64,000 nt of DNA from Candidatus Eiseniibacteriota bacterium (GTDB lineage: Bacteria > Eisenbacteria > RBG-16-71-46), in the NCBI GenBank assembly GCA_963717935.1, contig CAVQXP010000002.1, positions 352,001 through 416,000 of the forward strand. Direction: 5' to 3'. The notes under the pieces were generated by a model, which saw nothing but the letters and a program-made list of their open reading frames with translations, did not search any database and had not been told where the DNA came from. The position numbers and the translations under genes were made by a program. Below, piece by piece: positions 6,643 through 64,000 of this stretch. Position 1 is the first letter of the stretch; every line of letters begins with the position of its first letter.

Positions 6643-7758
6643 ATGACCCTTGCCGAGTCGCCTTCCAGGCCCGTGGGTGAGACGCCGGCAGCGTGCCAGG
6701 AGGCCGGCAGGTCCCTGGTTTCGATCGTCGTCCCCGCCTTCAACGAGGCCGATGGCCTCGAGCGCAACCTCACGGCCGTGTGCCGTTACATGGAGACGCT
6801 CGAGGACGCCTGGCGCTGGGAGCTGGTCGTCGTCGACGACGGCAGCACGGACGACACCGGCCGGCTGGCGGACGAGTTCGCGCGCGTGCGCGGCAACGTC
6901 CACGTCCTGCACCACCTGACCAACTTCGGTCTGGGCCAGGCGCTGCGTTCCGGGTTCAGCCACTGCCGCGGCGACTACGTCGTGACGCTCGACATGGATC
7001 TGAGCTATGCGCCCGAGCACATCGGTGCCCTGCTCGAGCGGATCCGCGCCAGCGGGGCCAAGGTCGTGGTGGCGTCCCCGTACATGAAGGGCGGGCGGGT
7101 CTCGAACGTGCCCTGGTTCCGGCTACTGCTGAGCGCGTGGGCGAACCGCTTCCTGTCCATGGCCACGAACCACAGCGTCTCCACGGTGACCGGCATGGTC
7201 CGGGCCTACGACGGCCCCTTCCTGCGCTCGCTGAGCCTCAAGTCCATGTACACGGAGATCAACCCGGAGGTCATCTACAAGGCGCTGCTGCTGAACGCCC
7301 GCATCGACGAGATCCCGGGGCACCTCGACTGGGCACTCCAGCGCGCGCCGGGGACGGTCCGGCGCTCCAGCGCCCGGGTGAAGCGCCAGACCCTGCAGGT
7401 GCTGCTCGCGGGCTTCCTCTTCCGCCCGGTCATGTTCTTCATCCTCCCGGGCACGCTGATCCTGCTGTTCTCGCTCTACACCAACGCCTGGATGTTCATC
7501 CATTTCTTCGAGCAGTACGGCACGCTGTCCAGGATCCGGGGCTTCGAGGACCGGGCGACGGCGGCGGTGGGGGCCGCCTTCCAGCAGTATCCCTACACCT
7601 TCATCATCGGCCTGATGAGTCTGATCCTGGCGGTCCAGCTTCTGAGCCTCGGGATCGTGGCTCTGCAGAACCGGGAGTACTTCAAGGAGATGTTCTACCT
7701 TGGCACGCGAATCCAGCGATTCACCAGGGAACACCGCAAGGAGAATACGGATGACTGA
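6643..7758 (+). CDS. GT2 glycosyltransferase, polyprenol-phosphate glycosyltransferase (DPM1/ArnC-like) with C-terminal TM helices
   Basis: SIVVPAFNE, VVDDGSTDDT, NFGLGQAL, DMDLSY (DXD), two C-terminal TM segments. Confidence 0.88.
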   Translation: MTLAESPSRPVGETPAACQEAGRSLVSIVVPAFNEADGLERNLTAVCRYMETLEDAWRWELVVVDDGSTDDTGRLADEFARVRGNVHVLHHLTNFGLGQALRSGFSHCRGDYVVTLDMDLSYAPEHIGALLERIRASGAKVVVASPYMKGGRVSNVPWFRLLLSAWANRFLSMATNHSVSTVTGMVRAYDGPFLRSLSLKSMYTEINPEVIYKALLLNARIDEIPGHLDWALQRAPGTVRRSSARVKRQTLQVLLAGFLFRPVMFFILPGTLILLFSLYTNAWMFIHFFEQYGTLSRIRGFEDRATAAVGAAFQQYPYTFIIGLMSLILAVQLLSLGIVALQNREYFKEMFYLGTRIQRFTREHRKENTDD

Positions 7759-8980
7759 GCCTGTGAATGCACCGAAGCCCATGACGCTGCCGTCGGACCA
7801 GGACGCCTCGGGGCGGACTCTGGGGGACGAGGAGATCGCCGCCCTTACCGCCGTCATCAAGAGCGGTCACCTCTGGACCAACCGCGGGACCACGGGCAAG
7901 GCGCTCGAGGAGCAGTTCGCGCAGATGATGGGCGTGAAGCACGCGTACGCGGTGACGTCGGGGACGGCGGCCCTGCACGCGGCCGTCGCCGCGATCAACC
8001 CCAATCCCGGGGACGAGATCATCACGACCTCGATCACCGACATGGGCGCGCTGACGCCGATCCTCTACCAGGGCGCCATCCCGGTGTTCGCCGATGTGGA
8101 CCCCGTCACCTACAACCTGACGGCGAAGACCATCGAGCGCTGCCTGAGCCCGCGCACGAAGGCCATCATGGTCACGCACCTGTTCGGCAATCCCTGCGAC
8201 ATGGACGAGATCATGGCGCTCGCCGATGCGCACAAGATCCCGGTGATCGAGGATTGCGCCCAGTCCTACCTCGCCCGCGCGAACGGCCGGCTGGTCGGGA
8301 CCATCGGCGCGATCGGCTGCTTCAGCCTGCAGCAGGGCAAGCACATCACTACCGGCGAGGGCGGGCTCGTCGTCTCGAGCGACCCGGCGCTGGCGCGCCG
8401 CGCGTTCCTGTTCATCAACAAGGCGTGGGGCTACGGCGACCAGAACCCGGACCACTACTTCCTGGCGCTGAACTACCGCATGAGCGAGCTGCAGGGCGCG
8501 GTGGCGGTGGCACAGCTGCCGAAGCTCGCGGGCGTGGTCAAGGCGCGCGTCGCCCTGGCCGACGCGATGACCGCCCGCCTGAAGGGCATGGACGGCGTCG
8601 AGACGCCCTACGTGAACCCGAAGAACCTCCACACCTACTGGAAGTACTGCCTGCGGGTGGACGGCGCGAAGATCGCCGACGGCGCGGTGGGGCTGGCGAA
8701 GGTGCTGAAGGACAAGGGCGTCGCCTCGGGGCCGCGCTACATCCAGAAGCCCTCGTTCATGTGCGAGGTCTTCCAGAAGCAGCGCACCTTCGGCGACAGC
8801 CGCTGGCCGTTCACGCTGGCGCGGCCGGAGGCGGTGAACTACGACCGCGCGCTGTTCCCCGGGACCTACGAGGCGCTGGAGAAGGTGCTCGTGCTGCCGT
8901 GGAACGAGCGCTACACCGAGGCGCACCTGGACTTCCTCGCGACCTCGATCCGCGACGCCGCGGCGCTGGCGAAGAAGTGA
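7751..8980 (+). CDS. DegT/DnrJ/EryC1/StrS PLP-dependent sugar aminotransferase
   Basis: SGTAALH, HLFGNPCDM, IEDCAQS, FSLQQGKHITTGEGG, NYRMSELQ. Confidence 0.92.
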   Translation: MTEPVNAPKPMTLPSDQDASGRTLGDEEIAALTAVIKSGHLWTNRGTTGKALEEQFAQMMGVKHAYAVTSGTAALHAAVAAINPNPGDEIITTSITDMGALTPILYQGAIPVFADVDPVTYNLTAKTIERCLSPRTKAIMVTHLFGNPCDMDEIMALADAHKIPVIEDCAQSYLARANGRLVGTIGAIGCFSLQQGKHITTGEGGLVVSSDPALARRAFLFINKAWGYGDQNPDHYFLALNYRMSELQGAVAVAQLPKLAGVVKARVALADAMTARLKGMDGVETPYVNPKNLHTYWKYCLRVDGAKIADGAVGLAKVLKDKGVASGPRYIQKPSFMCEVFQKQRTFGDSRWPFTLARPEAVNYDRALFPGTYEALEKVLVLPWNERYTEAHLDFLATSIRDAAALAKK

Positions 8981-12336: not shown

Positions 12337-13691
12337 ATGAAGCGATGCCTCGTCGTGTCCTTGCCCGCCGTCGGGCTCCTGCTGGCGCTGGCCGCGGTCG
12401 CCGCGGCCGCCAGCCCCGCCGTCACCGTCTACACCCGTGACCTCGGCTTCGTGCGCGAGACCCGCGCGCTGGAGCTGGCGGGCGGGCGCGACACCGTGCG
12501 GCTCTCGGACCTGCCCGAGCGGCTCGACTTCTCCTCGGTGCGGCTCGTCCCTGCGGGCGCGGCGCGCGTCACCCGGCTCGCCTACCGCTGGGACGTGGCG
12601 AGCGGCGATGCCTTCCTCGAGAACGCGGTCGGCAAGCGCGTGAGCGTCAACTCGCGCGGCGACCGGGTGACCGAGGGGACGCTGGTCACGAGCGACGGCT
12701 CGTGGCTCGTGGTGCGCGCCGACGACGGTTCGCTCTCGACCCTCGCGCGCAGCGCGGTCGAGGCCGTGCGGCTGGCCACACCGGCGGCGCGGCTCTCGCT
12801 GCGGCCCACGCTGGAAGCCGTGATCGAGGACGGCAGGCGCGGGAGCGCCGACCGCCGAGCTGTCCTATCTGACCGGCGGGCTCTCCTGGAGCGCCGAGCA
12901 CACCGTGGTGCGACGGGGCGAGCGCGAGGCGGTCTGGTCGGCCACCGTGACCGTGCAGAACTCCACCGGCCGGGACTACGTGGACGCCACGCTCAAGCTC
13001 GTGGCGGGCGAGCCCAGGCGCGATCAGGCGCGGCTGATGCCCGCGATGCGGGCCATGGCGATGGACGGCGAGATGAAGATGGCAGGCGCCCCCGACCTCT
13101 CGGAGGAGAGCTTCGCCGAGTACCACCTCTACACCCTGGGCCGCCCGGCCACGCTGCGCGGACGCGAGCAGCAGTCCTTCACCCTGATCGAGCCGCGCGT
13201 CGTGAAGGTGACGCCGCGCTACGTCTACCGTGGCGGCGATGCGCGCGGCGTGATGAGCCAGATGCAGATCGTGGACTCGAAGGAGGCCGGGCTCGGCCTG
13301 CCCGCTGCCGGCCGGGCGCGTGCGCTTCTACGAGGTCGACCCGGCGGGCGCTCCGCAGTTCACCGGCGAGAGCAGCATCAAGCACACGCCGGAGGGGGAG
13401 AAGCTCGAGCTTGAGGTCGGGGCCGCGTTCGACCTCAAGGCGGAGCGCCGCGACCTGTACAACAAGCGCATCAGTGATCGCGAGCGCGAGTACTCGGTCG
13501 AGATCAGGCTGCGCGACCACAAGAAGAACGACGTCGTGATCGTCGTACGGGAGAGCGTGGGCGGGGACACCGAGATCACCCAGAAGACCCACGAGTTCAC
13601 GCGCAAGGACGCCAACACGATCGAGTTCGCGATCCCCGTCGCGGCCGGGAAGGAAGCGGTGCTGAGCTACACGGCACGCGTGCGGTACTGA
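12337..13691 (+). CDS. DUF4139-domain secreted protein (frameshifted near 12850 and 13310)
   Basis: Signal peptide, [54 protein letters not shown], across three reading frames. Confidence 0.8.
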
Positions 13692-13742
13692 GCGGGGGCG
13701 CCGGCCGCACCGGGAGGCCCCCCCGGCGCGGGCGAAGAGGCG

Positions 13743-13813
13743 GCGGTGCCCCGGGGTGGCGGTGGGCGAGCGGAGGCACCATGCGCTCGCCCACCGCCAC
13801 CCCGGGGCACCGC
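13743..13813. repeat. Perfect 30-bp inverted repeat with 11-nt spacer, upstream of uvrB
   Basis: GCGGTGCCCCGGGGTGGCGGTGGGCGAGCG (13743-13772) and its exact reverse complement (13784-13813). Confidence 0.95.
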
Positions 13814-13872
13814 GCACACGCGCGCGGTCCCCGCTCGACCCTTCGCCCCGGCTCGGGTAGCATCGCGCGGCC

Positions 13873-15979
<2,107 letters not shown>

Positions 15980-30199: not shown

Positions 30200-30854
30200 A
30201 TGACCGAGAACCGCTACATCGCCGTCGAGGGCGTGATCGGCGTGGGCAAGACGAGTCTCTCGAAGCTGCTCATCGGAGCGCCTCAAGGCGCAACTGGTGC
30301 TCGAGGAGGTCGAGGAGAACCCCTTCCTCAAGGACTTCTACAAGGACCGGGCGCGTTACGCGTTCCAGACCCAGATGCACTTCCTCTTCAGCCGCTACCA
30401 GCAACAGCGCAGCCTGCGGCAGACGGAGCTGTTCAGCGAACGCCTGGTCGCCGACTACCTGTTCCAGAAGGACCGCATCTTCGCGGGGCTGAACCTCTCG
30501 GACCGGGAGCTGGCGCTGTACGAGAAGCTGGTGGTCTGGCTCGAGCTGGACGTCGTGAAGCCCGACGTGGTGGTCTATCTGCAGGCGAGCTCCGACATCC
30601 TCATGGAGCGCATCGGCAAGCGTGGCCGGGCGTTCGAGAAGGACATGGACCGCGACTACATCAAGCAGCTCAACGAGGCCTACAACTACTTCTTCTTCCA
30701 CTACGTGGACGCGCCGCTGCTGGTGGTGAACACCAACGGGATCGACTTCGTGAACAACGCGGACGACTTCGAGGACCTGCTCCAGCGCATCGTGTCGCAC
30801 CGGCAGGGCACGGTCTATTACGCGCCGCTCGAGCGCGGGGCGGCCGGGTCGTGA
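30200..30854 (+). CDS. Deoxynucleoside kinase (frameshift ~30275)
   Basis: YIAVEGVIGVGKT P-loop, EENPFL..FY, FLFSRY, PDVVVYLQA. Confidence 0.9.
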
Positions 30855-31680
30855 GCGAGCCGAAGGGCGCGGGCCCCGGGCGCGGGCGCTGGACGGCGCC
30901 CGCCATCGCCGAGCTGAAGCGCCGCGGCGAGCTCATCGCCGTGGCGACCGCCTACGACTTCCCGACCGCGCGGCTCGCGGACGAGGCGGGCGTCGAGGTC
31001 GCTGCTGGTGGGCGACAGCCTGGGCACCGTGGTGCTGGGCTACGAGAGCACGCTGCCCGTCACCATGGCCGACATGCTGCACCACGTGAAGGCCGTGACG
31101 CGCGCACGCCCCGCCGCGCTGGTGGTGGCCGACATGCCCTTCCTGTCCTACCAGGCGAGCGTCGAGGAAGCGGTGCGCAACGCCGGGCGCTTCGTGCAGG
31201 AGGGCGGCGCCGACGCGGTCAAGCTGGAGGGCGGCGAGCGGGTCGCGCCGGCGGTGCGGCGCATCGTCGAGATCGGCATCCCGGTGATGGGGCACCTCGG
31301 GCTCACGCCCCAGTCGCTGCTCGCCTTCGGCGGCTACAAGGTGCAGGGGAGGGGCGAGGGCGAGGCCGAGCGCCTGATGCGGCGAGGCGCGGCTGCTGGA
31401 GCAGTGCGGCTGCTTCGCGCTGGTGCTCGAGGGCATCCCGGCCGCGCTGGGCGCGGCCGTGACGCGCGAGCTCGGCATCCCCACGATCGGCATCGGCGCC
31501 GGGGCGGCCTGCGACGGACAGGTGCTGGTGAGCCACGACCTGCTCGGCCTGACCCAGGGCCACGTGCCGAAGTTCGTGCGGCGTTACGCCGACCTGGCCG
31601 GGACCATGCGGGACGCGTTCGCGCGCTACGTGGCCGACGTCAAGGCGCGCCGCTTCCCGTCGGACGAGGAGTCGTATTGA
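30851..31680 (+). CDS. panB: 3-methyl-2-oxobutanoate hydroxymethyltransferase (frameshifted)
   Basis: [42 protein letters not shown]. Confidence 0.93.
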
Positions 31681-32575
31681 GCGCCCGCCGGTCGCGCCCG
31701 CCGGCCCGCCGGCCCGCGCTGCGTCGCGTCGCGAGCCCCGCGCGCGTGCATGCGCTGGTGGCCGGGCTGGAAGCGCGCCGGCCTGCGCGTGGCGTTCGTG
31801 CCCACCATGGGCGCGATCCACGAGGGGCACCTGAGCCTGGTGCGGCGCGCCCGCGCGGCGGCGGACCGCGTGGTGGCGAGCATCTTCGTCAACCCGCTGC
31901 AGTTCGGGCCGGGCGAGGACTTCGCGCGCTACCCGCGCCCCGTCCGCCGCGACCGCGACCTGCTGGCGGAGGCGGGCGTGGACCTGCTGTGGGAGCCGCG
32001 CGGCGCGGACCTCTACCCGCCCGGACACCGCACGCGCGTGAGGGTCGCGGGCCTGGGCGACGTGCTCGAGGGCGCCACGCGCCCCGGGCACTTCGACGGG
32101 CGTGACCACGGTGGTGCTCGTCCTGCTCGAGGTGGTGGCGCCGCACGTGCTGTGGCTCGGACAGAAGGACGCCCAGCAGGCGCTGCTGATCGAGCGCATG
32201 GTGCGCGACCTGCGCCTGCCGGTGAAGGTGCGGCGCGGCCCGACGGTGCGCGAGCCCGACGGGCTGGCGATGTCCTCGCGCAACGCCTACCTGTCGCCCG
32301 CGGAGCGCGCGCAGGCGGTGGCGCTGTCGCGCGGCCTGGCCGCGGCCCGCGCCGCGCTGGTGGCGGGCGAGCGCTCGGCGGCGCGCGTGGCGCGGGCGGT
32401 GCGCGCGGTGTGGCGCCGCCACCCGCTGGTGCGCGAGGACTACGTGGCGGTGGTGGACGCGCAGACGCTCGAGCCGGTGAAGGACGTGCGCGCGGCGCGC
32501 CGGCTGCTGGTCGCGGTGGCCGCGCGCGTAGGTCCCGCGCGGCTCATCGACAACTTCGAGTGGAGCCGGCGATGA
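31677..32575 (+). CDS. panC: Pantoate-beta-alanine ligase (frameshifted)
   Basis: [51 protein letters not shown]. Confidence 0.93.
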
Positions 32576-33216
32576 GCGCGCGGCGGGTGGCATCGGCGCG
32601 GCCACGACGCGGGACGGCAGAGCGGGCAACGGGCGGTGAGCCGAAACGCCTCCGGCCGGCCGCCCCGGCGGGCGCACGGGGCGCGCTCGAGCGGCTGTGG
32701 GCTCCGTGGCGGATGGCGTATGTCGGCCGGGCGCAGGAGCCGGCCGGTTGTCTGTTCTGCCGGGTGGCCCGCGCGCGCGCCGACCGGCCGCTCCTGGTCC
32801 TGGCGCGCCGGCCGCACGCCTTCCTGATGCTGAACCGCTACCCGTACAACGGCGGGCACCTGATGGTGGCGGTGCGCGAGCACCGGGCCTGCTTCGCGCG
32901 TCTCACGGCGGAGGAGCGCGCGGACCTGCTGGAGCTCGTGGGGCTTGCGGAACGGGCCCTGGAGACGGAGTATCACCCGCACGGCATGAACTTCGGCGTG
33001 AACGTCGGGCGCGTGGCCGGCGCCGGTTTCCCCGGGCATCTGCACATGCACGTGGTGCCGCGCTGGGACGGCGACACCAATTTCATGGCGGCGGTCGGCG
33101 AGACCCGCGTGCTCCCGGAGTCCCTGGCGCGGACCTGGATCCGTCTGCGCCGGGCCATCCGGATGCTCGAACGGGGGCCGGGCGGGCGACGGAGGGCGCG
33201 TGGCCCGAAGGGGTGA
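32572..33216 (+). CDS. HIT family hydrolase (Ap4A phosphorylase-like)
   Basis: LWAPWRMAY, CLFC, LNRYPYNGGHLM, HLHMHVVPRWDGDTNFM. Confidence 0.9.
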   Translation: MSARRVASARPRRGTAERATGGEPKRLRPAAPAGARGALERLWAPWRMAYVGRAQEPAGCLFCRVARARADRPLLVLARRPHAFLMLNRYPYNGGHLMVAVREHRACFARLTAEERADLLELVGLAERALETEYHPHGMNFGVNVGRVAGAGFPGHLHMHVVPRWDGDTNFMAAVGETRVLPESLARTWIRLRRAIRMLERGPGGRRRARGPKG

Positions 33217-36006: not shown

Positions 36007-37122
36007 ATGAGCACGCGCAGCGAAGCCCCCGCCCGTCCGGCCGATTCGGAGCCCGCGCCGCGCCCGATCCCGTGGCCCACGCAGGTGCTGGACGCGCTGG
36101 AACAGGGGGTGGTGGCACTCGACCGTGAGCGCCGTGTCACCTACAACAACCGCCGCATCGAGGAGCTGTTCGCCATCGAGCCGGGCGGGCTGCTGGGGCT
36201 GCCGGCGTCGCGCCTGTTCCCCGGGGCCGACGCGCGCTGGCTGAAGGGCTCCTCGCGCGAGCCGCGCGAGTTCCGCATCGAAGCCGAGGGCCGCGAGTTG
36301 ACGCTCAAGGCCGAGTCCCTGCCGTTGCGCGACGAGGATGGCGCCCTGATGGGCTCGCTCGTGATGGTGGAGGCCACCTCCGAGAGCGAGGACGGCGAGT
36401 TCCAGAAGAACATCGACCGTCTGGTCTCGCTGGGCGAGTTGTCGGCCTACGTGGCCCACGAGATCCGCAACCCGCTGACAGGCATCCGCACCACCGTCCA
36501 GTACGTGGGCTCGAAGTTCAAGCCCAACGACGCCCGGCGCGAGGATCTCGAGGACGTCATCAAGGAGCTGGACCGCATCGAGCAGATCATCACCGGCCTG
36601 CTCATGTTCGCCCGGCCGCCCGCGGCCCGCCCGCAGTCGTGCGACCTGCGCCAGGTGCTCGAGAAGACGCTGGACCTGCTCGAGCTGCAGCTGGGGGACG
36701 CGCAGGTGACGCTCTCCAAGGATTACGCCGAGGTGACCGAGGAGATCCCGCTCGTCTACGCGGACCCCGACCTCACGCAGCAGGTGTTCCTCAACCTCTG
36801 CCTGAACGCCGTGCAGGCCATGCCCGAAGGGGGCGAGCTGCACGTCATGCTGGGGGTGCGGCGCTACCGCACGCGGCGCTCGGTGGTGGACGTCTCCTTC
36901 CGGGACACCGGCGTGGGCATCCCCAAGGATCTCATGGAGAAGATCTTCGACCCCTTCTTCACGACGCGTTCCATGGGCACCGGGCTGGGCCTGCCCATCT
37001 CGCTGCAGATCGTGCGCGAGGTGGGCGGCGTGATCACCGCCAAGAACAACGCGGGCGGTGGCGCGACGCTGCGCGTCTCCTTCCCGGTCCCGGCGGAGCC
37101 GCCGGGACCGCCGGAGGACTAG
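36007..37122 (+). CDS. Cytoplasmic PAS-domain sensor histidine kinase (NtrB/AtoS-like)
   Basis: PAS (GVVALD...YNN), H-box AHEIRNPL, N-box NLCLNAVQAM, G1 DTGVGI, F/G2 IFDPFFTT..GTGLGL. No TM helix. Confidence 0.92.
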   Translation: MSTRSEAPARPADSEPAPRPIPWPTQVLDALEQGVVALDRERRVTYNNRRIEELFAIEPGGLLGLPASRLFPGADARWLKGSSREPREFRIEAEGRELTLKAESLPLRDEDGALMGSLVMVEATSESEDGEFQKNIDRLVSLGELSAYVAHEIRNPLTGIRTTVQYVGSKFKPNDARREDLEDVIKELDRIEQIITGLLMFARPPAARPQSCDLRQVLEKTLDLLELQLGDAQVTLSKDYAEVTEEIPLVYADPDLTQQVFLNLCLNAVQAMPEGGELHVMLGVRRYRTRRSVVDVSFRDTGVGIPKDLMEKIFDPFFTTRSMGTGLGLPISLQIVREVGGVITAKNNAGGGATLRVSFPVPAEPPGPPED

Positions 37123-37126
37123 GACC

Positions 37127-38501
37127 GTGAAGAACACCGTGCTCGTCGTGGACGACGAGACTCCTCATCCGCAAGTCGCTGTCCCGCGTGCTGCGCGAGA
37201 AGGGCTACCTGGTCGAGGGGGCGAGCACCGGGGCGGAGGGTCTCGAGAAGGTCGAAAGCGTGCGGCCGCAGGTCATCATCCTCGACATGCGCCTGCCGGA
37301 CACCGACGGCCTCTCCGTGCTGCGGCGCGTACGCCAGTTGGATGCGCTGGTCCAGGTCATCGTCATCACCGCCTACGGCGACGTCCAGTCGGCGGTCGAG
37401 GCCATGAAGCTCGGAGCCTGCGATTTCCTCCGGAAGCCGTACGAGAAGGAGGACATCGAGATGGCGGTCGAGGCTGCGGCCCGCACGTTCCGCCAGGCCA
37501 ACGAACTCGACCTCTACCGCCGCAAGGAGAAGCGCCGGTACACGGGGGAGGAGATCATCGGCACCTCCGTCCCCATGCAGGAGGTGCGGGATCTCATCGA
37601 GAAGGTGGTGCGCAGCCAGGCGACCTCCGTGTTCATCACCGGGGAGAGCGGGACCGGCAAGGAACTGGTCGCGCGGGCGATCCACTACCGCAGCGATCGT
37701 GCCCAGGCGCCGCTCATGGAGGTCAACTGCTCCTCGTTCCAGGAGACCCTGCTCGAGAACGAGCTGTTCGGGCACGAGCGCGGCGCCTTCACGGACGCCG
37801 GGGACCTGAAGAAGGGCCTGGTCGAGCTTTGCGACGGCGGCACGCTCTTCCTGGACGAGGTGGCGGACATGTCGATGCCGACCCAGGCCAAGCTCCTGCG
37901 CTTCATCGACTACCGGAACTTCAAGCGGGTGGGCGGGGCCGAGGACATCAGCGTGGACATCCGCATCGTGGCCGCCTCGAACAAGGATCTCGAGAGCGAC
38001 ATCCGCACCGGGCGCTTCCGCAGCGACCTGTACTTCCGCCTCAAGGTCGTGAGCATCCACCTGCCTCCGCTCAACGAGCGCGGTGACGACATCCTGCTGC
38101 TGGCGCGGCACTTCCTGCGCGAGTTCTCCCGCCAGTTCCAGAAGGACTTCCGCGACATCACGCCCGACGCGGCGCGCCTGCTGCTGTCCTACCGCTGGCC
38201 GGGCAACGTTCGCGAGCTGCGCAACCTCATCGAGCGCGTCGTGCTCCTCGAGGATGGGCGGCAACTGGAACTCGATCACCTGCCGGCGGAGGTCGCGGGC
38301 CGGCGCCTGGCCTCCGACCACTCGATCGCGCTGCCCACGCTCGCGCAGATCGAAGCCGACCACATCGCCGAGGTGCTGCGGCTCACCGCGGGGAACAAGA
38401 GCCGCGCCGCGCGCGTCCTCGGCATCTCGCGGCAGGGTCTCATCGAGAAGCTGCGGCGCTCGCGCGTGCTCGACGAGGGTGGTGGTCGTCAAGTATCTTG
38501 A
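37127..38501 (+). CDS. Sigma54-dependent response regulator (REC-AAA+-Fis HTH); frameshift ~37160
   Basis: VLVVDDE, LDMRLPD, GESGTGKE, ELFGHERGAFTDA, LFLDEV, FRSDLYFRL, WPGNVRELRN, GNKSRAARVLGISR. Confidence 0.94.
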
Positions 38502-38547
38502 CACCCACAAGGAAGTGGACACCGTCCTGCAATCTATTGTATTGCAG
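38488..38547. promoter_or_regulatory. Putative upstream activator sequences (palindromes) for a sigma54 activator
   Basis: GTCAAG-TAT-CTTGAC (38488-38502), a degenerate copy 18 bp downstream (CACAAGGAAGTGGACAC, 38506-38522), and CTGCAAT-N7-ATTGCAG (38527-38547), in the most AT-rich stretch of the window. Confidence 0.55.
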
Positions 38548-38713
38548 TTGTTTGCGATTCACGTTCCGGCTAACTCACCATTAAATTGACGGTTAGAACG
38601 GTTCGAGCCAGTCGAAAACGGCAAGGTGCGAGCCTGGGTAGAACCCACGGCTATTTTTTATTGCCTTGTACTGCAATGTCTTACGCGATGAATGACGCTG
38701 CCTCCCTGCCGTG

Positions 38714-38729
38714 TGGAATGGAACCTGCT
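38714..38729 (+). promoter_or_regulatory. Putative sigma54 (-24/-12) promoter
   Basis: TGGAATGGAACCTGCT has GG and GC at the canonical spacing of TGGCACGNNNNTTGC. It is preceded by an A/T tract and IHF-like CTGCAAtgtcTTA (38671-38683). Confidence 0.6.
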
Positions 38730-38739
38730 TCCGAGTTCG

Positions 38740-39294
38740 GGCGAGGCCAAGTGGGGTTCTCGGGAACTCCGCCGGGCCGCCGGGGCCGCGCCCAAGGCGG
38801 CGGCCAACAGTGCCCCAGCGAGAAGTTGGGGACTCCACCATCGAGATCAGATCCAAGGAGGTGATCAGGAATGGCAGCGAAGAAGAAGGTCGCCAAGAAG
38901 AAGGTCGCCAAGAAGAAGGTCGCCAAGAAGAAGAAGTAAGCCCGTCTCAGGACCTGGCACGTCCTCAGGGGATTGGTCGGCGATGCCGGCCAATCCCCGA
39001 TTGCTGGGGGAGCGGCTCTCGACCCGGCGGGGAGGTCCAGGGGAGAGGATGCGCGCCGGCTGCCACGCCCGTTCGCGGGAGCGACCCTCGCTCCGCCTGG
39101 AGTGGAAGCCGATCGACCGGCGGGTCGGCCTTACCTGAGGCCACCGGTCGCGCGAGAGAGAACGCACCGCGGGACGGTGACCTGACGGTGCGGGTTTGGG
39201 GCTGGAGGTTTCCGTGCTAGGGCTGGCCGTCTTCCTCCAGTGACCCGCGACGGTTCGCTCATGGATGGGCGGGCCGTTCGCGTCTTCTGAGGAT
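38740..39294 (+). ncRNA. Candidate structured RNA (family not recognised) surrounding the small Lys-rich ORF
   Basis: At least nine predicted hairpins, several with G-U pairs on the + strand (38751-38772, 38813-38831, 38968-38998, 39250-39277), plus possible long-range pairings. Confidence 0.45.
38871..38939 (+). CDS. 22-aa Lys/Ala/Val-rich basic peptide MAAKKKVAKKKVAKKKVAKKKK (histone H1-tail/protamine-like)
   Basis: AAGGAGGTGA Shine-Dalgarno (38855-38864), ATG 38871, TAA 38937-38939. All 13 Lys codons are AAG. Built from the 15-bp unit AAGAAGAAGGTCGCC x3. Confidence 0.8.
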   Translation: MAAKKKVAKKKVAKKKVAKKKK

Positions 39295-39394
39295 CCCCCG
39301 CAGCGTTCCCTGCAGCGAGCCTTGCCGCCGGTGGCGCGTGCTATAGTCGTGCAGCTCGCCACCGCCGCGTGCTCTTCGCCTGCCCGAGGCCCCG

Positions 39395-42184
<2,790 letters not shown>

Positions 42185-42218
42185 ACGCCGCCCATCCCGG
42201 GCGCAGACTCCCGCCGCC

Positions 42219-43680
42219 ATGGACGCCATCTCCGCCGCCGGGCTCGAGCGGCTCGACGACTTCCGCTGGATGATCCCGCGCGCGGGCGCGATGCGCGTGC
42301 CCGGGGTCATCTTCGCGGACCGGCCGCTGCTCGAGCAGATCCTCGGCCGACCGCACCTGCGAGCAGATCCGCAATGCCGCGACCCTGCCGGGCATCCTCG
42401 AGGCCTCGATCGCCATGCCCGACGCCCACTGGGGCTACGGGCTGCCGGTCGGCGGCGTGGTGGCCTTCGATCCCGGACGAGGGCGTGGTCTCGCCGGGCG
42501 CGGTGGGCTACGACATCGGCTGCGGCGTGCGCCTGATGCGCACCCGCCTCGACGCGCGCCGACCTGGCCCCGCAGGTGGAGGCCCTGGCCGACGCGCTCT
42601 ACCGCGAGGTGCCCGTGCGGCGTGGGCTCCACCGGGCGCGGTGCGGCTCAAGCCCGGGCGATCTGGACCGGGTGCTGCGCGACGGGCCGCGCTGGGCGGT
42701 CGGGCGCGGCCTGGGCACCGCGGGCGACCTCGAGCACTGCGAGGAGGCCGGCGTGCTGGCCGACGCCGACCCGGGCGCGGTGAGCGAGGCCGCGAAGGAC
42801 CGCGGCCGCGACCAGCTCGGCACGCTGGGCTCGGGCAACCACTTCCTCGAGGTGCAGGAGGTGGACGAGATCCACGACGAGGACGGCGGCGCGGGCGCTC
42901 GGGCTCGAGCGGGGCATGGTCACCGTGATGATCCACTGCGGCTCGCGCGGGCTGGGCCACCAGGTCTGCACCGACCACGTGCGCGACGTCGCGCGCAAGC
43001 TCACCGGCTGGGGCATCGACGCTGCCGGACCGGCAGCTCGCCTGCGCCCCGCTGCGCTCGCCCGAGGCCACGGCCTACCTGGGCGCGATGCGCGCGGCCG
43101 CGAACTTCGCCTGGGCGAACCGGCAGTGCATCGCCGACGAGGTGCGGCGCGCCTTCGAGCGCACGCTGCGCCGCAGCCACGAGTCGCTTGGACCTCACGC
43201 TGGTCTACGACGTGGCGCACAACATCGCCAAGTTCGAGCGCCACCGGACCGCGGCGGGCACGGTGCGCTGCCTGGTGCACCGCAAGGGCGCGACGCGGGC
43301 CTTCCCGGCGGGCCACCCCGACGTGCCCGCGGCCTACCGTGCGGTGGGCCAGCCGGTGCTGGTGCCCGGGCGACATGGGGCGCTACTCGTTCGTGCTGGT
43401 CGGGCGTCCGGGCTCGATGGCGCACGCCTTCGGCTCCACCTGCCACGGCGCCGGACGCCGCATGAGCCGCACCCAGGCGGTGCGCGAGACGCGCGGCCGC
43501 GACCTGGTCGCCGAGCTGCGCGAGGCCGGCGTCGCCGTGCGCTCCAAGGGCCGCGACACGCTGCGCGAGGAGACCAGCGAGGCCTACAAGGACGTGGCCG
43601 ACGTCGTGCGCGTGGTCGAGGGCGCGGACCTGGCGAGGCGCGTGGCGCGGCTCAGGCCGTTCCTGGTGGTCAAGGGCTGA
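42219..43680 (+). CDS. rtcB: RNA 2',3'-cyclic phosphate/5'-OH ligase RtcB (multiple frameshifts)
   Basis: [65 protein letters not shown]-terminal VKG. Confidence 0.92.
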
Positions 43681-52401: not shown

Positions 52402-52468
52402 TGCGGGCGGAGCACGGATCTGAGAACGGAGGTCGGCCGGTCCGTCCGTCCGCCTCGCGAAGGACCCC

Positions 52469-54022
52469 GTGAGACAGCAGATCATCATCAACGCCGATCC
52501 GTACGAGACCCGCATCGCCATCCTCGAGGAGGGCGAGCTGGCCGAACTGAGGGTCGAGCGCTCCGAGCAGCGACGCAGCGTGGGCGACATCTACAAGGGC
52601 CGGGTCAACGCCGTGCTGCCGGGCATGCAGTCCGCGTTCGTGGACCTGGGGCTCGCCAAGACCGGCTTCCTCCATGCCTCGGACCTGGCCGAGAACCTCG
52701 CTGCGCTCGAAGACCTCTCCGACGTCGAGGAGAGCGGGGAGCGCGGCGGCCACCGCCGCCGGGCCGCGGCCCCCAAGATCGAGGAGCACCTCAAGAAGGG
52801 CCAGGAGGTGCTGGTGCAGATCACCAAGGAATCGATGGGCACCAAGGGCCCGCGCATCACCCAGCAGGTGAGCCTGCCCGGGCGCTTCTGCGTGCTCATG
52901 CCGGGCGTGGATCACGTCGGCGTGTCGCGCCGTATCGAGGACCGGGCCGAGCGCCAGCGCATCAAGGCCATCATCACGGACCTCAGGCCCAAGGGTGTCG
53001 GCCTGATCGCGCGCACCGCCGGCGAGGGCAAGGGCGATCCGGAGTTCGCCGCCGACGTCAAGCACCTGCACAAGCTCTGGCAGAAGGTGGACAAGAAGGC
53101 CGGCACCACGCGTGCGCCCGCGCTCGTGCACCGTGAGCTGGAGATGACCGCGGGCCTCATCCGCGACCTGTTCACCGACGAGGTGGACGAGGTCATCATC
53201 GACGACAAGGAGTCCTTCGCCGAGACCCAGGCCTACCTGAAGGCGGTCTCGCCCGAGCTGCGCGAGCGCGTGAAGCTCTACAAGGGCACGGAGCCCATCT
53301 TCGACCACTACGGCATCGAAACGCAGATCGAGAAGACCTTCGAGCGCAAGGTGTGGCTCAAGAAGGGTGGCTACATCTGCGTGGACCACGCCGAGGCGCT
53401 GGTCGCCATCGACGTGAACACCGGGCGCTTCACCGGCAAGAAGAACCAGGAAGAGACCATCTTCCGCACCAACCTCGAGGCGGCGCGGGAGATCCCCCGG
53501 CAGCTGCGCCTGCGCGACATCGGCGGCATCATCGTGATCGACTTCATCGACATGGAGATCGAGGCGAACAAGCGCGCCGTGCTGGACGAGCTACGCACCG
53601 AGCTCCGCGCGGACCGCGCCCGCACCCGGGCGTTCGCGGTCTCGGACCTGGGGCTCGTCGAGATGACCCGCCAGCGCGAGCGCTCGAGCCTGCTCCACTA
53701 CTACACCGAGGACTGCCCGCACTGCGGCGGCCTCGGCAAGGTGGCCTCGCCCGAGACCATGCTCGTCAAGCTCGAGCGTGCCGTGCGGCGGGTGGCCGCC
53801 ATGGGCGGCGAGAAGCGCATCACGGTCAAGGTGGCGCCCGAGATCGCACTGTTCTTCGTCGAACAGGAGGCGCGGCGCTTCGCCGAGCTGGAGAAGCGCT
53901 TCAGGATCCAGGTGGATCTGAAGGACGATCCGCAGTTGAAGCGCGGCGAGATGAAGGTCTTCGGCGCCGGCGGCAAGCGCGACCTGACCAAGCAGGTGGT
54001 CGGGAGCGTGCCCGGCACGTAG
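52469..54022 (+). CDS. rng: Ribonuclease E/G family endoribonuclease
   Basis: GDIYKGRV..VLPGMQSAFVD, QITKE..GTKGPR, IDVNTG, RLRDIGGIIVIDFIDM, EMTRQR, CPHCGG. Confidence 0.93.
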   Translation: MRQQIIINADPYETRIAILEEGELAELRVERSEQRRSVGDIYKGRVNAVLPGMQSAFVDLGLAKTGFLHASDLAENLAALEDLSDVEESGERGGHRRRAAAPKIEEHLKKGQEVLVQITKESMGTKGPRITQQVSLPGRFCVLMPGVDHVGVSRRIEDRAERQRIKAIITDLRPKGVGLIARTAGEGKGDPEFAADVKHLHKLWQKVDKKAGTTRAPALVHRELEMTAGLIRDLFTDEVDEVIIDDKESFAETQAYLKAVSPELRERVKLYKGTEPIFDHYGIETQIEKTFERKVWLKKGGYICVDHAEALVAIDVNTGRFTGKKNQEETIFRTNLEAAREIPRQLRLRDIGGIIVIDFIDMEIEANKRAVLDELRTELRADRARTRAFAVSDLGLVEMTRQRERSSLLHYYTEDCPHCGGLGKVASPETMLVKLERAVRRVAAMGGEKRITVKVAPEIALFFVEQEARRFAELEKRFRIQVDLKDDPQLKRGEMKVFGAGGKRDLTKQVVGSVPGT

Positions 54023-59625: not shown

Positions 59626-60601
59626 TGGCGCGCGACCTGATCGAGCTGGCGCGAGAGGTGGTGCGCGGCGAGACCGCGGCGGTCGCCGGGCTCGAGAGCC
59701 GGCTCGGCCCGGAGTTCCTCGCGGCGGTCGAGTGCCTGCACGGCTGCCGCGGCAAGGTGGTGGTCTCGGGTGTGGGCAAGTCCGGGCTGCTCGCCCACAA
59801 GCTCGCGGCCACGCTCACCAGCACCGGCACGCCGGCGGTGTTCCTGCACCCGGCCGACGCCCTGCACGGCGACGCCGGCCTGTTCGCCTCCGGCGATGTC
59901 GCCCTGTTCCTCTCGAAGAGCGGCGCCAGCGACGAGTTGCTGGCGCTGCTGCCCTACCTCGAGCGGCACGGCATCCCGCTCGTGAGCATCGTCGCGACCC
60001 CGGGCTCCGCCCTCGGGCGCAAGAGCGGCGTCTGCCTGGTGACCGGCCCGGTGCGCGAGGTCTGCCCCATGGACCTCACGCCCGACGACCAGCATCACGG
60101 TGGCCCAGGTGATGGGCGATTGTCTCGCCGTGGCGCTGCTCGAGCGGCGCGGTTTCAAGGCCGAGGACTTCCGCTTCCTGCACCCGGGCGGGGTCATCGG
60201 GCGCTCCGCGGCGCGCCGCGTCGAGGAGCTGATGCACGAGGGCGCCGCGCTGCCGCGGGTGGCGGAGAGCGCCCCGCTGCGCGAGGTGATGCTCGAGATC
60301 ATGGACAAGCGGCTCGGCATCACGACCGTGCTGGACGGCGCCGGACGGCTCGCCGGCGTGATCACCGACGGTGATTTCAAGCGCATCCTGCTCAAGCACC
60401 CGGACCCCTGGGACGCTCAGCGCGCGGGAGGTCATGGCCCGCGCGCCGAGCACGACCGGCCGGGACACGCTGGTGGCGGCCGCGGTGCGCCAGATGGAGG
60501 AGCGGCCTGCCGGCCCGATCACCGCGCTGGTCGTGGTGGACGGGGAGGGCATGCCCGTCGGTGTGCTGCACCTGCACGACTGCCTCCGCGCAGGACGTTA
60601 G
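59625..60601 (+). CDS. kdsD: Arabinose-5-phosphate isomerase (SIS + CBS; frameshifted)
   Basis: [47 protein letters not shown]. Confidence 0.92.
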
Positions 60602-60741
60602 CCCGGACGTCGTCGCGGCGGCCGGGGCGCGGTCCGGCCCGGCCTCGCCAGTCTCCATCCGTCGACGGCGCCGTCACCCCGGCGTCAAGTCCGGGCCCGT
60701 TCGGACCGATAACCCCTCAGGATTTCAACGCGCAGACGCGC

Positions 60742-60757
60742 TGGCACTTGTCGTGCT
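60742..60757 (+). promoter_or_regulatory. Putative sigma54 promoter upstream of lptC-lptB-rpoN-hpf
   Basis: TGGCACTTGTCGTGCT: perfect -24 TGGCAC and -12 TGC at canonical spacing. Confidence 0.65.
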
Positions 60758-60798
60758 TGCGACCCGTCCCCCCCTTTGTTAGCGTGGGCTTCGACGTG

Positions 60799-61434
60799 AT
60801 GAACCGGGCACCTTTGATCCCCAGGGGGCGTTGGTCCCCCCGCTTCCGTGGTCTCCCTCCGGGGGCCCGAAGCCTCGTGGCGTTGGCGCTGCTGCTGCTC
60901 GTCGTCGCGGGCTGCGGCACCGAGCGCTCCAGCGTGCCCTCGCGGGCCGCCGGCGAGCTGCCGGACCAGGAGGTGAGCGATTTCGCCCTCACCGAGACCG
61001 ACCAGGGTGCCCCGCAGTGGAAGCTCTATGCCCGCTACGCGGCCACCTACAACGCCCGCAACGTCATCGTCGCCCGCGCCGTCCGCGTGGACTTCTTCGA
61101 CGAGCAGGGCGCCCAGTCCTCCGAGCTCACCGCGCGCGAGGGCGAGATCCAGCTGCAGACGCGCGACATGACGGCGCGCGGCAACGTGGTCCTGCAGACG
61201 CGCGAGGGCACGCGCATGTCCACGCAGGAGATTCGTTTCCTGAACCGCGAGCAGAGGATCGTCTCTCCGCTCGAGCAGATGGTGCGGGTGGAGCGCGCGG
61301 GTGACGTGCTCACCGGCTACGGCTTCGAGAGCGATCCCGGGCTCAAGCACTTCGAGTTCAAGCGCAAGGTGGAGGCGACGGTGCAGACGCGCTCGGGCGG
61401 CGGAGTCTCCGAGCGCAAGAGCGGTGCCCGGTGA
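60799..61434 (+). CDS. lptC: LPS export ABC transporter periplasmic protein LptC (lipobox-bearing; start uncertain)
   Basis: Hydrophobic segment ending LLVVAGC, beta-jellyroll-like region (VDFFDEQG, LTAREG, MTARGNVV, GYGFESD). Located between kdsD and lptB. Confidence 0.8.
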   Translation: MNRAPLIPRGRWSPRFRGLPPGARSLVALALLLLVVAGCGTERSSVPSRAAGELPDQEVSDFALTETDQGAPQWKLYARYAATYNARNVIVARAVRVDFFDEQGAQSSELTAREGEIQLQTRDMTARGNVVLQTREGTRMSTQEIRFLNREQRIVSPLEQMVRVERAGDVLTGYGFESDPGLKHFEFKRKVEATVQTRSGGGVSERKSGAR

Positions 61435-62243
61435 GCGGTGACGGCGACCGCCGGCCCGCCCTGGACCCGCCGAACGAGGGTGCCCGTGCCCCGGACGTCC
61501 CGGTGGCGCCGCCGGGCCCGGCCGAGGGCCTGGTAGCCAGCGGGCTCGAGCGCTACTACGGGCGCTGGCGCGTCGTGGACGACGTGACCTTCCACGTGCG
61601 CCGCGGCGAGGTCGTGGGGCTGCTCGGACCGAACGGGGCCGGCAAGACCACGTCCTTCTACATGATCGTGGGCTTGCTCCGGCCGAGCCGGGGGCGCATC
61701 CTGCTCGAGGGCCGCGACGTCACCGACGAACCCGTCTACCGGAGGGCGCGGCTCGGGCTCGGCTACCTCGCGCAGGAATCGAGCATCTTCCGCCGCCTGA
61801 CGGTCAGCGACAACGTGATGGCCGTGCTGGAGACCATGCCCCTCACCAAGGCCGAGCGCGAGGCGCGGCTGAAGCTGCTGCTGGAGGAGTTGAACCTCAC
61901 GCACCTGGCGGGCCGCATGGCCACGAAGCTCTCGGGCGGCGAGCGCCGCCGCGTGGAGATCACGCGGGCGCTGGCGCGGCAGCCGTCCTACATGCTGCTC
62001 GACGAGCCCTTCGTCGGCATCGACCCCATCGCGGTCGCGGAGATCCAGGACATCGTGGGTCGCCTGCGCCAGCGAGGGCTCGGAGTGCTCATCACCGACC
62101 ACAACGTGCGCGAGACGCTGCGGATCACCGACCGCGCGTACATCATGTACGAGGGCCGTATCCTCCTGCAGGGAACCTCGCAGGAGCTGGCCAGCGACTC
62201 GAGAGCGCGTGAGATCTACCTGGGCGACCGATTCAGTCTCTGA
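61431..62243 (+). CDS. lptB: LPS export ABC transporter ATP-binding protein
   Basis: GPNGAGKTTSFYM, YLAQESSIFR, LSGGERRRVEI, LDEPF, ITDHNVRETL, YLG. Confidence 0.95.
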   Translation: MSGDGDRRPALDPPNEGARAPDVPVAPPGPAEGLVASGLERYYGRWRVVDDVTFHVRRGEVVGLLGPNGAGKTTSFYMIVGLLRPSRGRILLEGRDVTDEPVYRRARLGLGYLAQESSIFRRLTVSDNVMAVLETMPLTKAEREARLKLLLEELNLTHLAGRMATKLSGGERRRVEITRALARQPSYMLLDEPFVGIDPIAVAEIQDIVGRLRQRGLGVLITDHNVRETLRITDRAYIMYEGRILLQGTSQELASDSRAREIYLGDRFSL

Positions 62244-62273
62244 CGCCAGCCGCCGCACGGAGCCAATCCCATC

Positions 62274-63707
62274 ATGGAAATGAAACCTTCGCTGAACCTG
62301 AGCCTGCGGCCGGCCCTCATCATGACGCCGCGCCTGCAGCAGGCGCTCAAGCTGCTGCAGGTGCCGACGCTCGAGCTTCAGCAGATCCTCAAGCAGGAGA
62401 TGATCCAGAACCCGCTGCTCGAGGAGGTGGACGAGGTCACGGAGAGCGAGGACCTCGCCAAGGAGGACTCTCCCGAGGAGAAGGCCAACGAAGAGGCGGA
62501 GGACCCGACCGAGGAAGATCCCATCGACTGGTCGGATTACATGCAGGACGGGGCGCTCGACCGGGTCTACGTGCCCCAGCAGGAGACCTCGGTGGAGTTC
62601 CTCGAGAAGGTGCCGGTCACGCGCACCTCGCTGGCCGAGAGCCTGCTCGAGCAGCTCCACTTCCTGGCGCTCTCGCCGCGCGACCTGATGCTCGCGGAGT
62701 TCCTGGTCGGCTCGCTGGACGAGCGCGGCTGGCTGGCGACCCCGCTCGATGAGGTGGCGCAGTCCACGGGCCAGCCGCTCGAGCTCTGCGAGCGGATCCT
62801 GAAGGTCATCCAGGCGCTCGAGCCGGTCGGGGTGGGAGCGCGCGACCTGCGGGAGTGCCTGCTCATCCAGCTCGAGGCGCGCAACGAGCGCGATACGCTG
62901 CCGTGGAAGCTCATCCACGACCAGTTCGACAACCTGGTGAACCGGCGCTTCCCCGAGATCGCGCGCCAGCTCAAGTGCACGTCCGAGGAGGTGCAGGCGG
63001 GGGCCGACGCCATCGCCACGCTGAACCCCAAGCCGGGGCTCCAGGTCTCGAGCGAGGATCCCAGGTACGTGGTGCCCGACCTGGTCGTCGAGCGCGTGAA
63101 CGACGAGTACCTCGTCATGCTCAACGACCGGCACCTGCCCCGGTTGCGCATCTCCGCGGCCTACGAAGGCGTGATGCGCGGCAAGAAGAAGTCGGAGTGC
63201 ACCGTCGGCGAGGTCAAGACCCGCGAGTACATCCAGGGCAAGCTGAACTCGGCGCGCTGGCTCATCCAGACCATCGAGCAGCGGCGCCGCACCATGATCA
63301 AGGTGATGAACTGCATCATCCGCGAGCAGCGGGAGTTCTTCGACAAGGGGATCGCGTTCCTGCGGCCGCTCACGCTCCAGCAGGTCGCCCGGCAGATCGA
63401 CATGCACGAGTCCACGGTGAGCCGCGTCTGCAGCGCGAAGTACGTGCAGACGCCGCGCGGCGTGTTCGAGCTCAAGTTCTTCTTCTCGAGCGGGCTCGAG
63501 ACCGAGGACGGCGAGGACGTGTCGGCCCGGACGGCCCGTGACATCATCAAGACCCTCATCGACGAGGAGGTCAAGACCGAGCCGCTGTCCGACCAGCGCA
63601 TCGCCGAGCTCCTGCACGAGACGGGGCTCAAGATCGCCCGGCGGACGGTGGCCAAGTACCGGGAACAGCTCAGCATCCTGCCGGCGCGGTTCCGCCGGCG
63701 CGTGTGA
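62274..63707 (+). CDS. rpoN: RNA polymerase sigma-54 factor
   Basis: MTPRLQQALKLLQ, NPLLE, GARDLRECL, HESTVSR, ELKFFF, PLSDQ, RpoN box ARRTVAKYR. Confidence 0.97.
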   Translation: MEMKPSLNLSLRPALIMTPRLQQALKLLQVPTLELQQILKQEMIQNPLLEEVDEVTESEDLAKEDSPEEKANEEAEDPTEEDPIDWSDYMQDGALDRVYVPQQETSVEFLEKVPVTRTSLAESLLEQLHFLALSPRDLMLAEFLVGSLDERGWLATPLDEVAQSTGQPLELCERILKVIQALEPVGVGARDLRECLLIQLEARNERDTLPWKLIHDQFDNLVNRRFPEIARQLKCTSEEVQAGADAIATLNPKPGLQVSSEDPRYVVPDLVVERVNDEYLVMLNDRHLPRLRISAAYEGVMRGKKKSECTVGEVKTREYIQGKLNSARWLIQTIEQRRRTMIKVMNCIIREQREFFDKGIAFLRPLTLQQVARQIDMHESTVSRVCSAKYVQTPRGVFELKFFFSSGLETEDGEDVSARTARDIIKTLIDEEVKTEPLSDQRIAELLHETGLKIARRTVAKYREQLSILPARFRRRV

Positions 63708-63737
63708 CATTCGTCCTGGAAGGGGAAGGATCCCGCC

Positions 63738-64000
63738 ATGCAGATCAGCACGACCGCTCGCCACTGCGAGCTCGATGCCCAGGTCCGCGAATTCGCGCTG
63801 CAGCGTCTGACGAAGCTCGAACGCTTCGCCCGTGACATCCAGGAGGCGCACCTCGTCGTCACCGTCGAGAAATTCCGCCACTCGGCCGAGATCACCCTGC
63901 GGATCAAACACCACGAGATGGTGAGCCGCGAGGAGGCGGACTCCAGCAAGGTGGCCATCGACCAGGCCGCCCACCGGCTGGAGCAGCAGCTCCGCCGGCT
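63738..64000 (+). CDS. hpf: Ribosome hibernation promoting factor (HPF/RaiA), partial at window end
   Basis: MQISTTARHCELDAQVREFA..RL.KL.RF...AID.A..RLE.QLRR, directly after rpoN. Confidence 0.88.
   Translation, partial: MQISTTARHCELDAQVREFALQRLTKLERFARDIQEAHLVVTVEKFRHSAEITLRIKHHEMVSREEADSSKVAIDQAAHRLEQQLRR

Follow-up and report, generated by a model that had tools for sequence, protein, structure and literature searches.

Within a 64-kb stretch of DNA (the window), which is about 70% GC around the locus described here and derives from an uncultured soil and groundwater bacterium with a Candidatus Eisenbacteria-like genome, genes for a histidine kinase and an NtrC-type enhancer-binding protein (the activator) are followed by a candidate sigma-54 promoter and a 22-codon, lysine-rich open reading frame (ORF). 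We compared this locus with its relatives in one genome scan with the activator protein as query, which yielded 80 loci, 23 from Eisenbacteria (L001–L023) and 57 from other bacteria; the nearest relatives are metagenome-assembled genomes labelled Candidatus Eisenbacteria. Activator orthologues are 53–92% identical to the window's protein across L001–L023 and 74–92% identical in the 16 closely related genomes, the closest being L016 (92%), where a contig end cuts the small ORF. Counts out of 17 refer to the window plus L001–L016, and alignment A1 comprises 16 sequences. Where contigs reach, the gene order is a PpiD-like gene on the opposite strand, kinase, activator, small ORF and uvrA. The original prediction had proposed a sigma-54 switch in which a kinase–activator pair drives an adjacent tiny Lys-rich ORF; synteny, promoter, upstream boxes, Shine-Dalgarno (SD) site and ORF proved to be conserved in 16 related Eisenbacteria loci, and the window also contains rpoN.

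All window features given below lie on the forward (+) strand. The kinase gene (36007–37122) encodes PAS_4, HisKA and HATPase_c domains in Pfam and has neither a hydrophobic N-terminus nor a membrane segment, as expected of a cytoplasmic sensor histidine kinase. An orthologue with 41–94% identity stands immediately 5′ of the activator gene in 23/23 Eisenbacteria loci. The activator gene (37127–38501), whose actual start is the GTG at 37127 directly past the kinase stop codon, encodes Response_reg, Sigma54_activat (E=2.6e-64), AAA_lid_14 and HTH_8 domains, the last being a Fis-type helix-turn-helix. These Pfam assignments agree with the PAS kinase without a membrane part and the NtrC-type activator ending at 38501 that had been read from the DNA beforehand.

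The candidate sigma-54 promoter, TGGAATGGAACCTGCT (38714–38729), has its −24 GG at 38715–38716 and its −12 GC at 38727–38728, 10 nucleotides (nt) apart, and would start transcription near 38740. It departs from TGGCAC-N5-TTGCW at three positions, and a consensus scan of the window found 13 sites with at most two mismatches against 19.5 expected from shuffled sequence, which is not above chance. In the window alone the motif therefore proves nothing, and it is supported because it is conserved in relatives. A GG/GC promoter motif with the right spacing occupies the equivalent site in 16/17 loci, the exception being L002 with CGG, and a TGG-N9-TGC motif lies 104–163 nt 5′ of the ATG in 15/16 loci. 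Among the 17 loci the −24 hexamer is TGGCAC in 12, TGGCAT in two, TGGTAT in L016, CGGCAC in L002 and TGGAAT in the window, so that the usual form in relatives is the canonical TGGCAC-N5-TGC. The rpoN gene (62244–63704), with Sigma54_AID, Sigma54_CBD and Sigma54_DBD domains, lies 23 kb from the locus in a cluster (60043–63998) with lptC-like and lptB-like ABC ATPase genes upstream and hpf downstream.

Between the activator gene and the promoter, the DNA changes character. At 48.5% GC, 38500–38699 is the minimum of the window, in which 200-nt bins otherwise range from 57.5 to 82.5%; the next-lowest bin outside the locus is 7601–7800 (57.5%), followed by 38401–38600 and 38801–39000 (58–58.5%). 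Three related boxes stand in this region. Box A, TTGACAC (38498–38504), overlaps the activator stop codon and starts 216–217 nt 5′ of the −24 TGG in 12/17 loci; in L008–L011 a TTGGCAC variant occupies the box A alignment column, where that position is non-coding, and L005 has an insertion. Box B, TGGACAC (38516–38522), has computed offsets of −197 to −200 from the TGG in 14/17 loci. Box C, TTGACGG (38586–38592; TTGACAGTTA-like in relatives), starts 126–129 nt 5′ of the TGG in 17/17 loci, and the sequence between is unconserved and holds the operon terminator. Upstream of the 17 promoters the box family T(T/G)GAC(A/G) is 16-fold over-represented (8.1 versus 0.51 per kb), and boxes of this kind, similarly spaced, also stand before the sigma-54 promoters in L017, L020 and L021, which are distant orthologous loci. 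Putative activator sites are thus present roughly 100–200 bp upstream of the promoter, and their near-fixed spacing gives the locus the build of a promoter that depends on an enhancer and is subject to face-of-helix constraints. We infer that the adjacent activator is the protein that binds the three GACA boxes.

Two further features lie in this region. An inverted repeat read by eye at 38527–38547, between boxes B and C, bears out the palindromes originally predicted for this AT-rich stretch; at this position relatives, too, carry an inverted repeat, though its sequence differs, again as judged by eye and with no formal count. The repeat could represent a hairpin of the 3′ untranslated region (UTR) of the activator mRNA instead of a protein site. 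At 38631–38659, between enhancer and promoter, folding gave a hairpin followed by a T-run, and a similar arrangement is visible by eye in several relatives; it is likely to be the intrinsic terminator of the kinase–activator operon.

The small gene begins with a very strong SD site, GGAGGTGAT (38857–38865), 5 nt 5′ of the ATG. Its core GGAGGTGA is invariant in 16/16 sequences of alignment A1, and exact copies of the 9-mer occur only twice in the 64 kb. The ORF (38871–38939) encodes MAAKKKVAKKKVAKKKVAKKKK, with 14 Lys residues in about four Lys-rich pentamers, and is the sole Lys-rich ORF of the window. Complete orthologues of 21–27 codons, preceded by the same SD, lie 320–540 nt past the activator gene in L001–L015, and the peptide consensus, MAAKKKAAKKKxTKKKAAKKKK, is a Lys-rich pentamer repeat. 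The alignment shows conservation of the SD core, ATG and stop codon, and lengths differ only by multiples of three; in the 12 sequences that share one length, codon positions 1/2/3 contain 1/3/8 variable sites, all in non-Lys codons. The conserved SD, ATG and stop, the in-frame indels and the wobble-biased variation therefore indicate selection on the reading frame. The small ORF is very probably a real, sigma-54-controlled coding gene, and this conserved 22-codon gene is absent from gene-caller records and has never been annotated. Its exclusive use of AAG was considered as a special signal and rejected, being merely a genome-wide codon habit (AAG:AAA is 164:2 in eight window genes).

Counting all forms, a Lys-rich ORF lies 3′ of the activator gene in 19/23 Eisenbacteria loci (15 complete and small, one cut by a contig end and three longer), and the 57 non-Eisenbacteria loci from the same query have two Lys-rich ORFs, apparently unrelated. 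One could still suppose that no gene exists here and that a low-complexity ORF and a promoter-like motif coincide by chance, as spurious ORFs are common at about 70% GC and the promoter consensus is not enriched in the window. We assign this supposition a negligible probability, and the comparative data already refute it: 16 genomes whose activators are only 74–92% identical to that of the window conserve the promoter, the boxes, the SD, the ORF and the terminator.

The predicted 5′ leader (38740–38870) opens with a 5′-terminal hairpin at 38740–38781. The leader had been described at the outset as hairpin-rich, which is right for the window, where it folds better than shuffled sequences (z −4.0; −4.73 for the whole transcript), but wrong as a conserved property. 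Only 4/16 loci reach z < −2, leader length and sequence vary among relatives, and compensatory changes in the 5′ hairpin are confined to a subclade of eight sequences; no leader structure conserved across the clade was found, and the idea of a conserved structured leader was dropped. Sequestration of the SD by the leader was likewise rejected, the mean probability of pairing being 0.67 compared to 0.61 for dinucleotide-shuffled leaders (Wilcoxon p=0.25). RNAalifold also proposed a long-range pairing of the SD with a 3′ segment, CACGUCCU; both partners are invariant and so offer no covariation, and the partition-function probability of the pairing is ≤0.09 in 16/16 transcripts.

Downstream of the stop codon stands a 15-mer, GGACCTGGCACGTCC (38950–38964), which is identical in all 16 loci with sequence there. 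It can form a stem of 4 bp and a loop of 7 nt, and it holds a perfect TGGCACG, which resembles a −24 element and lacks a −12 GC at the right distance; the 15-mer could function as a loop in RNA, as a site for a protein or as a decoy for sigma-54. Next comes a GC-rich hairpin (38968–38998) in which 98.7% of cells are paired and 5/10 pairs show compensatory changes, and none of 500 shuffles reached its covariation score. A U-run follows the hairpin in several relatives and is missing in the window. This hairpin is the predicted terminator of a transcript of ~260 nt, and sequence conservation ends past it.

Because GGACCTGGCACGTCC is invariant, the main rival to a purely protein-coding unit is a dual function of RNA and peptide, in which the transcript would be mainly or additionally a regulatory RNA, an account that we consider unlikely. 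The 3′ stem-loop would then be the seed or protein site of a 3′-UTR small RNA (sRNA), and the four AAG-AAG-AAG blocks would be (ARN)n-type protein-binding motifs, as in the CrcZ sponge; the (ARN)n rule for Hfq binding underlies this reading of the blocks. The 15-mer is the same in 16/16 loci while its flanks, and even the peptide, vary, and a covarying terminator follows it closely, which is where the seed of a 3′-UTR sRNA is usually found. Comparable layouts are known from GlrKR–glmY, LuxO–qrr and PxrKR–pxr. The layout also matches CbrA–CbrB–crcZ of Pseudomonadaceae, in which crcZ lies downstream of the activator gene as a separate sigma-54-dependent unit (PMC8871633), and a sigma-54-dependent glnA mRNA is reported to release a 3′-UTR sRNA (PMC9731577). 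Four observations speak for the protein instead: the SD, ATG, stop, in-frame indels and wobble-biased variation reflect selection on the frame; L017, L018 and L020 retain a Lys-rich protein without the 15-mer; the all-AAG usage is a habit of the genome; and no Rfam family matches.

The comparison with CbrAB–crcZ also bears on novelty. As in that system, a small sigma-54 unit with clade-wide synteny comes after genes for a kinase and an NtrC-type activator (PMC8871633), so the statement in the original prediction that the system is not a described one holds for the product and fails for the layout: the regulatory layout is already known and only the product is new. As with sRNA genes that neighbour an enhancer-binding protein gene, the DNA beside the activator gene forms a small transcription unit of its own, headed by a sigma-54 promoter. 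It does not appear to produce a non-coding transcript of a described RNA family, given its coding-type substitutions and the absence of Rfam matches. Whereas crcZ is a non-coding, protein-sponge RNA, the unit here has a translated-type 22-codon ORF, lacks an Rfam match and belongs to another phylum, and its kinase is a soluble PAS protein without the transporter-like domain described for CbrA.

In the whole window Rfam gave no match at gathering score. Membership in the Pxr, CrcZ or Qrr families is unsupported by any Rfam match, and toga_FSE and gyrA appeared only as weak matches and were discarded. The best match, sX6 (RF02225), scored 21.8 bits against a gathering score of 40 (E=0.0029) and spans the AAG-rich ORF and the terminator; sX6 is described as a small mRNA that was first taken for an sRNA and encodes an 80-residue signal-peptide protein of xanthomonads (PMC3300014, PMC5559785). 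We rejected membership in this family, as the match is far below threshold and arises from composition plus a hairpin.

What is conserved at the locus becomes clearer in deeper-branching relatives. In L017 (6691–7313), L018 (3363–4173) and L020 (7111–7401), the activator gene is followed by one for a single-domain response regulator and then by a Lys/Ala repeat protein of 41, 101 and 96 residues, respectively; the 96-residue protein consists of the same pentamer, KKKxx, repeated many times, and uvrA comes next in L020. A sigma-54 promoter lies 5′ of the longer form in L017 and L020, and none was found in L018. Since forms of 41–101 residues occupy the same locus, the conserved entity would be a polycationic repeat protein rather than any one RNA fold. 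The 22-residue peptide of the window would then be the shortest form of a locus-specific, histone-H1-like series of Lys/Ala pentamer repeats, as judged from the sequences; the 22-residue form itself has neither the roughly 100 or more residues nor the detectable family homology expected of a histone-H1-like protein.

The same range of lengths bears on the suggestion that the peptide targets the ribosome or rRNA as a hibernation or accessory factor, in the manner of bS22, bL37 or Thx, or that it is a general RNA chaperone. Tiny basic ribosomal proteins are known whose range of size and charge covers that of the peptide, and conditional expression through a dedicated switch, as predicted here, would suit such a role. 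However, ribosomal proteins have a fixed length and sequence, unlike a low-complexity pentamer repeat that runs from 22 to 101 residues across relatives, and no ribosomal family in NCBIfam or Pfam matches, which leaves this suggestion improbable in our estimate.

Among the closest known proteins are the histone-H1-like Chlamydia Hc2 and Pseudomonas AlgP. The Lys-rich pentamers of Hc2 are described as varying in number (PMC2848022), and both proteins share with the present series Lys-rich pentamer repeats whose copy number varies among relatives (PMC2848022, PMC9239181). By this likeness the expected activity would be binding of a polyanion such as DNA or polyphosphate. The peptide here differs in having about four repeats and 22 residues, which makes it ~5–10 times shorter, in showing no detected family membership and in having a dedicated two-component/sigma-54 switch, and its DNA binding is only predicted. 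ScvA of Coxiella burnetii, which, from its composition, we take to be unrelated in sequence to the peptide, offers a likeness in size. ScvA is reported to be a tiny basic peptide of the small-cell variant with a proposed role in chromatin condensation and DNA protection, and thus resembles the present peptide as a very small basic product with conditional expression (predicted in our case); its expression is partly RpoS-dependent, not sigma-54-dependent, and the organism and life style differ (PMC13568565). Our literature searches on lysine-rich small proteins, sigma-54 and nucleoid microproteins did not find a description of such a peptide or module, and, among the papers listed for Eisenbacteria, there were only ecological or genomic surveys.

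These comparisons suggest the following scheme. The cytoplasmic PAS kinase would phosphorylate the NtrC-type enhancer-binding protein, which would bind the three GACA boxes ~216, 198 and 128 nt upstream of the sigma-54 promoter. Activation would yield a monocistronic mRNA of ~260 nt that ends at the covarying hairpin, and the very strong SD would direct translation of the 22-residue peptide with its roughly four Lys-rich pentamers and 14 Lys. The peptide would most likely serve as an inducible polycation with DNA, RNA or polyphosphate as its partner. The original prediction had suggested, as hypotheses, a nucleoid-condensing or dormancy factor, or a ribonucleoprotein in which the peptide would bind its own RNA. 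We infer the box-binding protein, translation in vivo, the peptide's target and the sensed signal. A self-contained Candidatus Eisenbacteria module comprising this gene and a polyanion-binding activity is the overall explanation that we judge best, at somewhat better than even chances. The proposed activity taken by itself, an inducible polyanion-binding microprotein, has chances of nearly one half; we propose it because the peptide resembles the pentamer repeats of Hc2 and AlgP and is similar to ScvA in size and conditional expression.

Several observations weigh against this explanation. The activator frame breaks near 37151–37160, inside the receiver domain, and if the break were real the switch would be broken in the window's genome. 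However, uvrA in the window is also scattered over at least three reading frames (39395–42273), and we therefore treated the break in the activator as an assembly artefact, without proof. Several ORFs at 30200–33200 also appear split. Together, the split frames at these three places suggest assembly indel errors rather than pseudogenes. The sigma-54 contact loop of the activator (37761 region) reads GAFTDA, not GAFTGA; GAFTDA or GAYTDA is found in 20/23 Eisenbacteria orthologues, and the D variant makes up 31 of the 79 motif instances across the fetched loci and the window, so that it is a common natural variant of the GAFTGA loop. The window's own −24 hexamer, TGGAAT, is non-canonical. Four of the 23 Eisenbacteria loci (L019, L021, L022 and L023) have no Lys-rich ORF, L021 having only 902 nt downstream. 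Searches of Pfam and NCBIfam with four of the peptides (22–27 residues) matched no family, and the 41-residue form from L017 gave only chance matches far below cutoff in these databases. Exact look-up of ten sequences among 15 billion proteins found none, and a search with the 96-residue form from L020 returned ten proteins, nine of which have a SWIB domain. Finally, GGACCTGGCACGTCC is conserved more strictly than the peptide, which hints at a role at the RNA or DNA level beyond a protein-only model.

One further reading combines peptide and RNA. The polylysine peptide and its own, presumably abundant, AAG-rich mRNA with the invariant 3′ stem-loop might form a dual-function pair, an inducible and self-assembling unit that would amount to a sigma-54-controlled coacervation switch, an idea that we regard as a long shot. 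If true, the pair would seed condensates of nucleic acid or polyphosphate, or act as a sponge for an RNA chaperone, in response to the signal of the PAS kinase. To our knowledge such a switch has no described counterpart in bacteria.

Beyond the terminator, the region up to uvrA is a mixture of parts. It had been pictured as ~350 nt of hairpin-dense RNA with no convincing protein ORF; the hairpins are there (the 15-mer stem-loop, the terminator and a two-hairpin element), but they do not make up one RNA, the region being composite with an unconserved spacer. Three ORFs within 38692–39362 had no Pfam match, in keeping with the lack of a convincing protein. Both structured parts that were checked for covariation, the terminator and the two-hairpin element, do covary. 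In L005 (2223–2681) and L006 (6275–6883), 2/16 loci, the spacer contains an AdoMet decarboxylase gene (PF02675); in L007 and L012 uvrA follows within ~150–280 nt, and in L004 a 196-residue ORF with no Pfam family (6964–7551) lies between the two-hairpin element and uvrA. A marginal tblastn trace of AdoMet decarboxylase at 39085–39201 (E=2.9) is the only sign that 39010–39195 in the window may be a decayed copy of this gene. The adjacency of two polycation-related genes, AdoMet decarboxylase for polyamine synthesis and the polylysine ORF, may be a coincidence.

In the two-hairpin element (39196–39301) 10/16 pairs show compensatory changes. A conserved CA(C/U)GGA(U/A/C)G loop marks its second hairpin, which is followed by a U-rich tail. 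A covariance model finds the element as a single copy per locus in 14 of 24 sources, or 14 of the 16 loci with sequence there (the window, L001–L006, L008–L011 and L013–L015), ~40–140 nt 5′ of the uvrA promoter; it is also present 3′ of the inserted AdoMet decarboxylase gene of L005 and L006, whose stop codon its first hairpin overlaps. Rfam has no match for it, and a dispersed repeat is rejected, as there is one copy per locus and it is always syntenic. The element might serve as another terminator, encode a small RNA or take part in the control of uvrA; it appears to be separate from the peptide unit and is not demonstrably part of it. The uvrA gene, whose ORF starts at 39395, has an extended −10 promoter of its own, TGCTATAGT (39339–39347), at the place originally proposed; a similar extended −10 precedes uvrA in relatives, and this promoter is a boundary of the unit and not part of it. 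The window also contains uvrB (13478–15976) and an RNase E/G gene (52424–54019).

These downstream genes are relevant to one more account of the small ORF, that it is a leader peptide whose 14 Lys codons stall the ribosome and so control read-through of the hairpin into AdoMet decarboxylase or uvrA. A short ORF that repeats a single type of codon, directly 5′ of a terminator hairpin, has the expected form, and an AdoMet decarboxylase gene does come next in L005 and L006. However, the downstream uvrA is served by a conserved extended −10 of its own, only 2/16 loci have AdoMet decarboxylase, and lysine-biosynthesis genes are absent nearby. Consensus and single-sequence folds gave only the terminator and a small local hairpin, with no antiterminator pairing, and the ORF has 41–101 codons in L017, L018 and L020, unlike a leader peptide. 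We therefore hold this account to be very improbable.

The locus thus presents a complete signalling module of kinase, activator, enhancer and promoter with a 22-residue, polylysine-type microprotein as its only evident output. The module would be transplantable, as enhancer to terminator span ~500 bp to which the two regulator genes are added, and GGACCTGGCACGTCC and the two-hairpin element are new candidate RNAs that may act in cis or in trans. If the peptide is a polyanion binder, histone-H1-like repeat proteins would extend down to the size of a peptide, and the module would provide a minimal, switchable model for compaction of the nucleoid, RNA or polyphosphate in an uncultured phylum.

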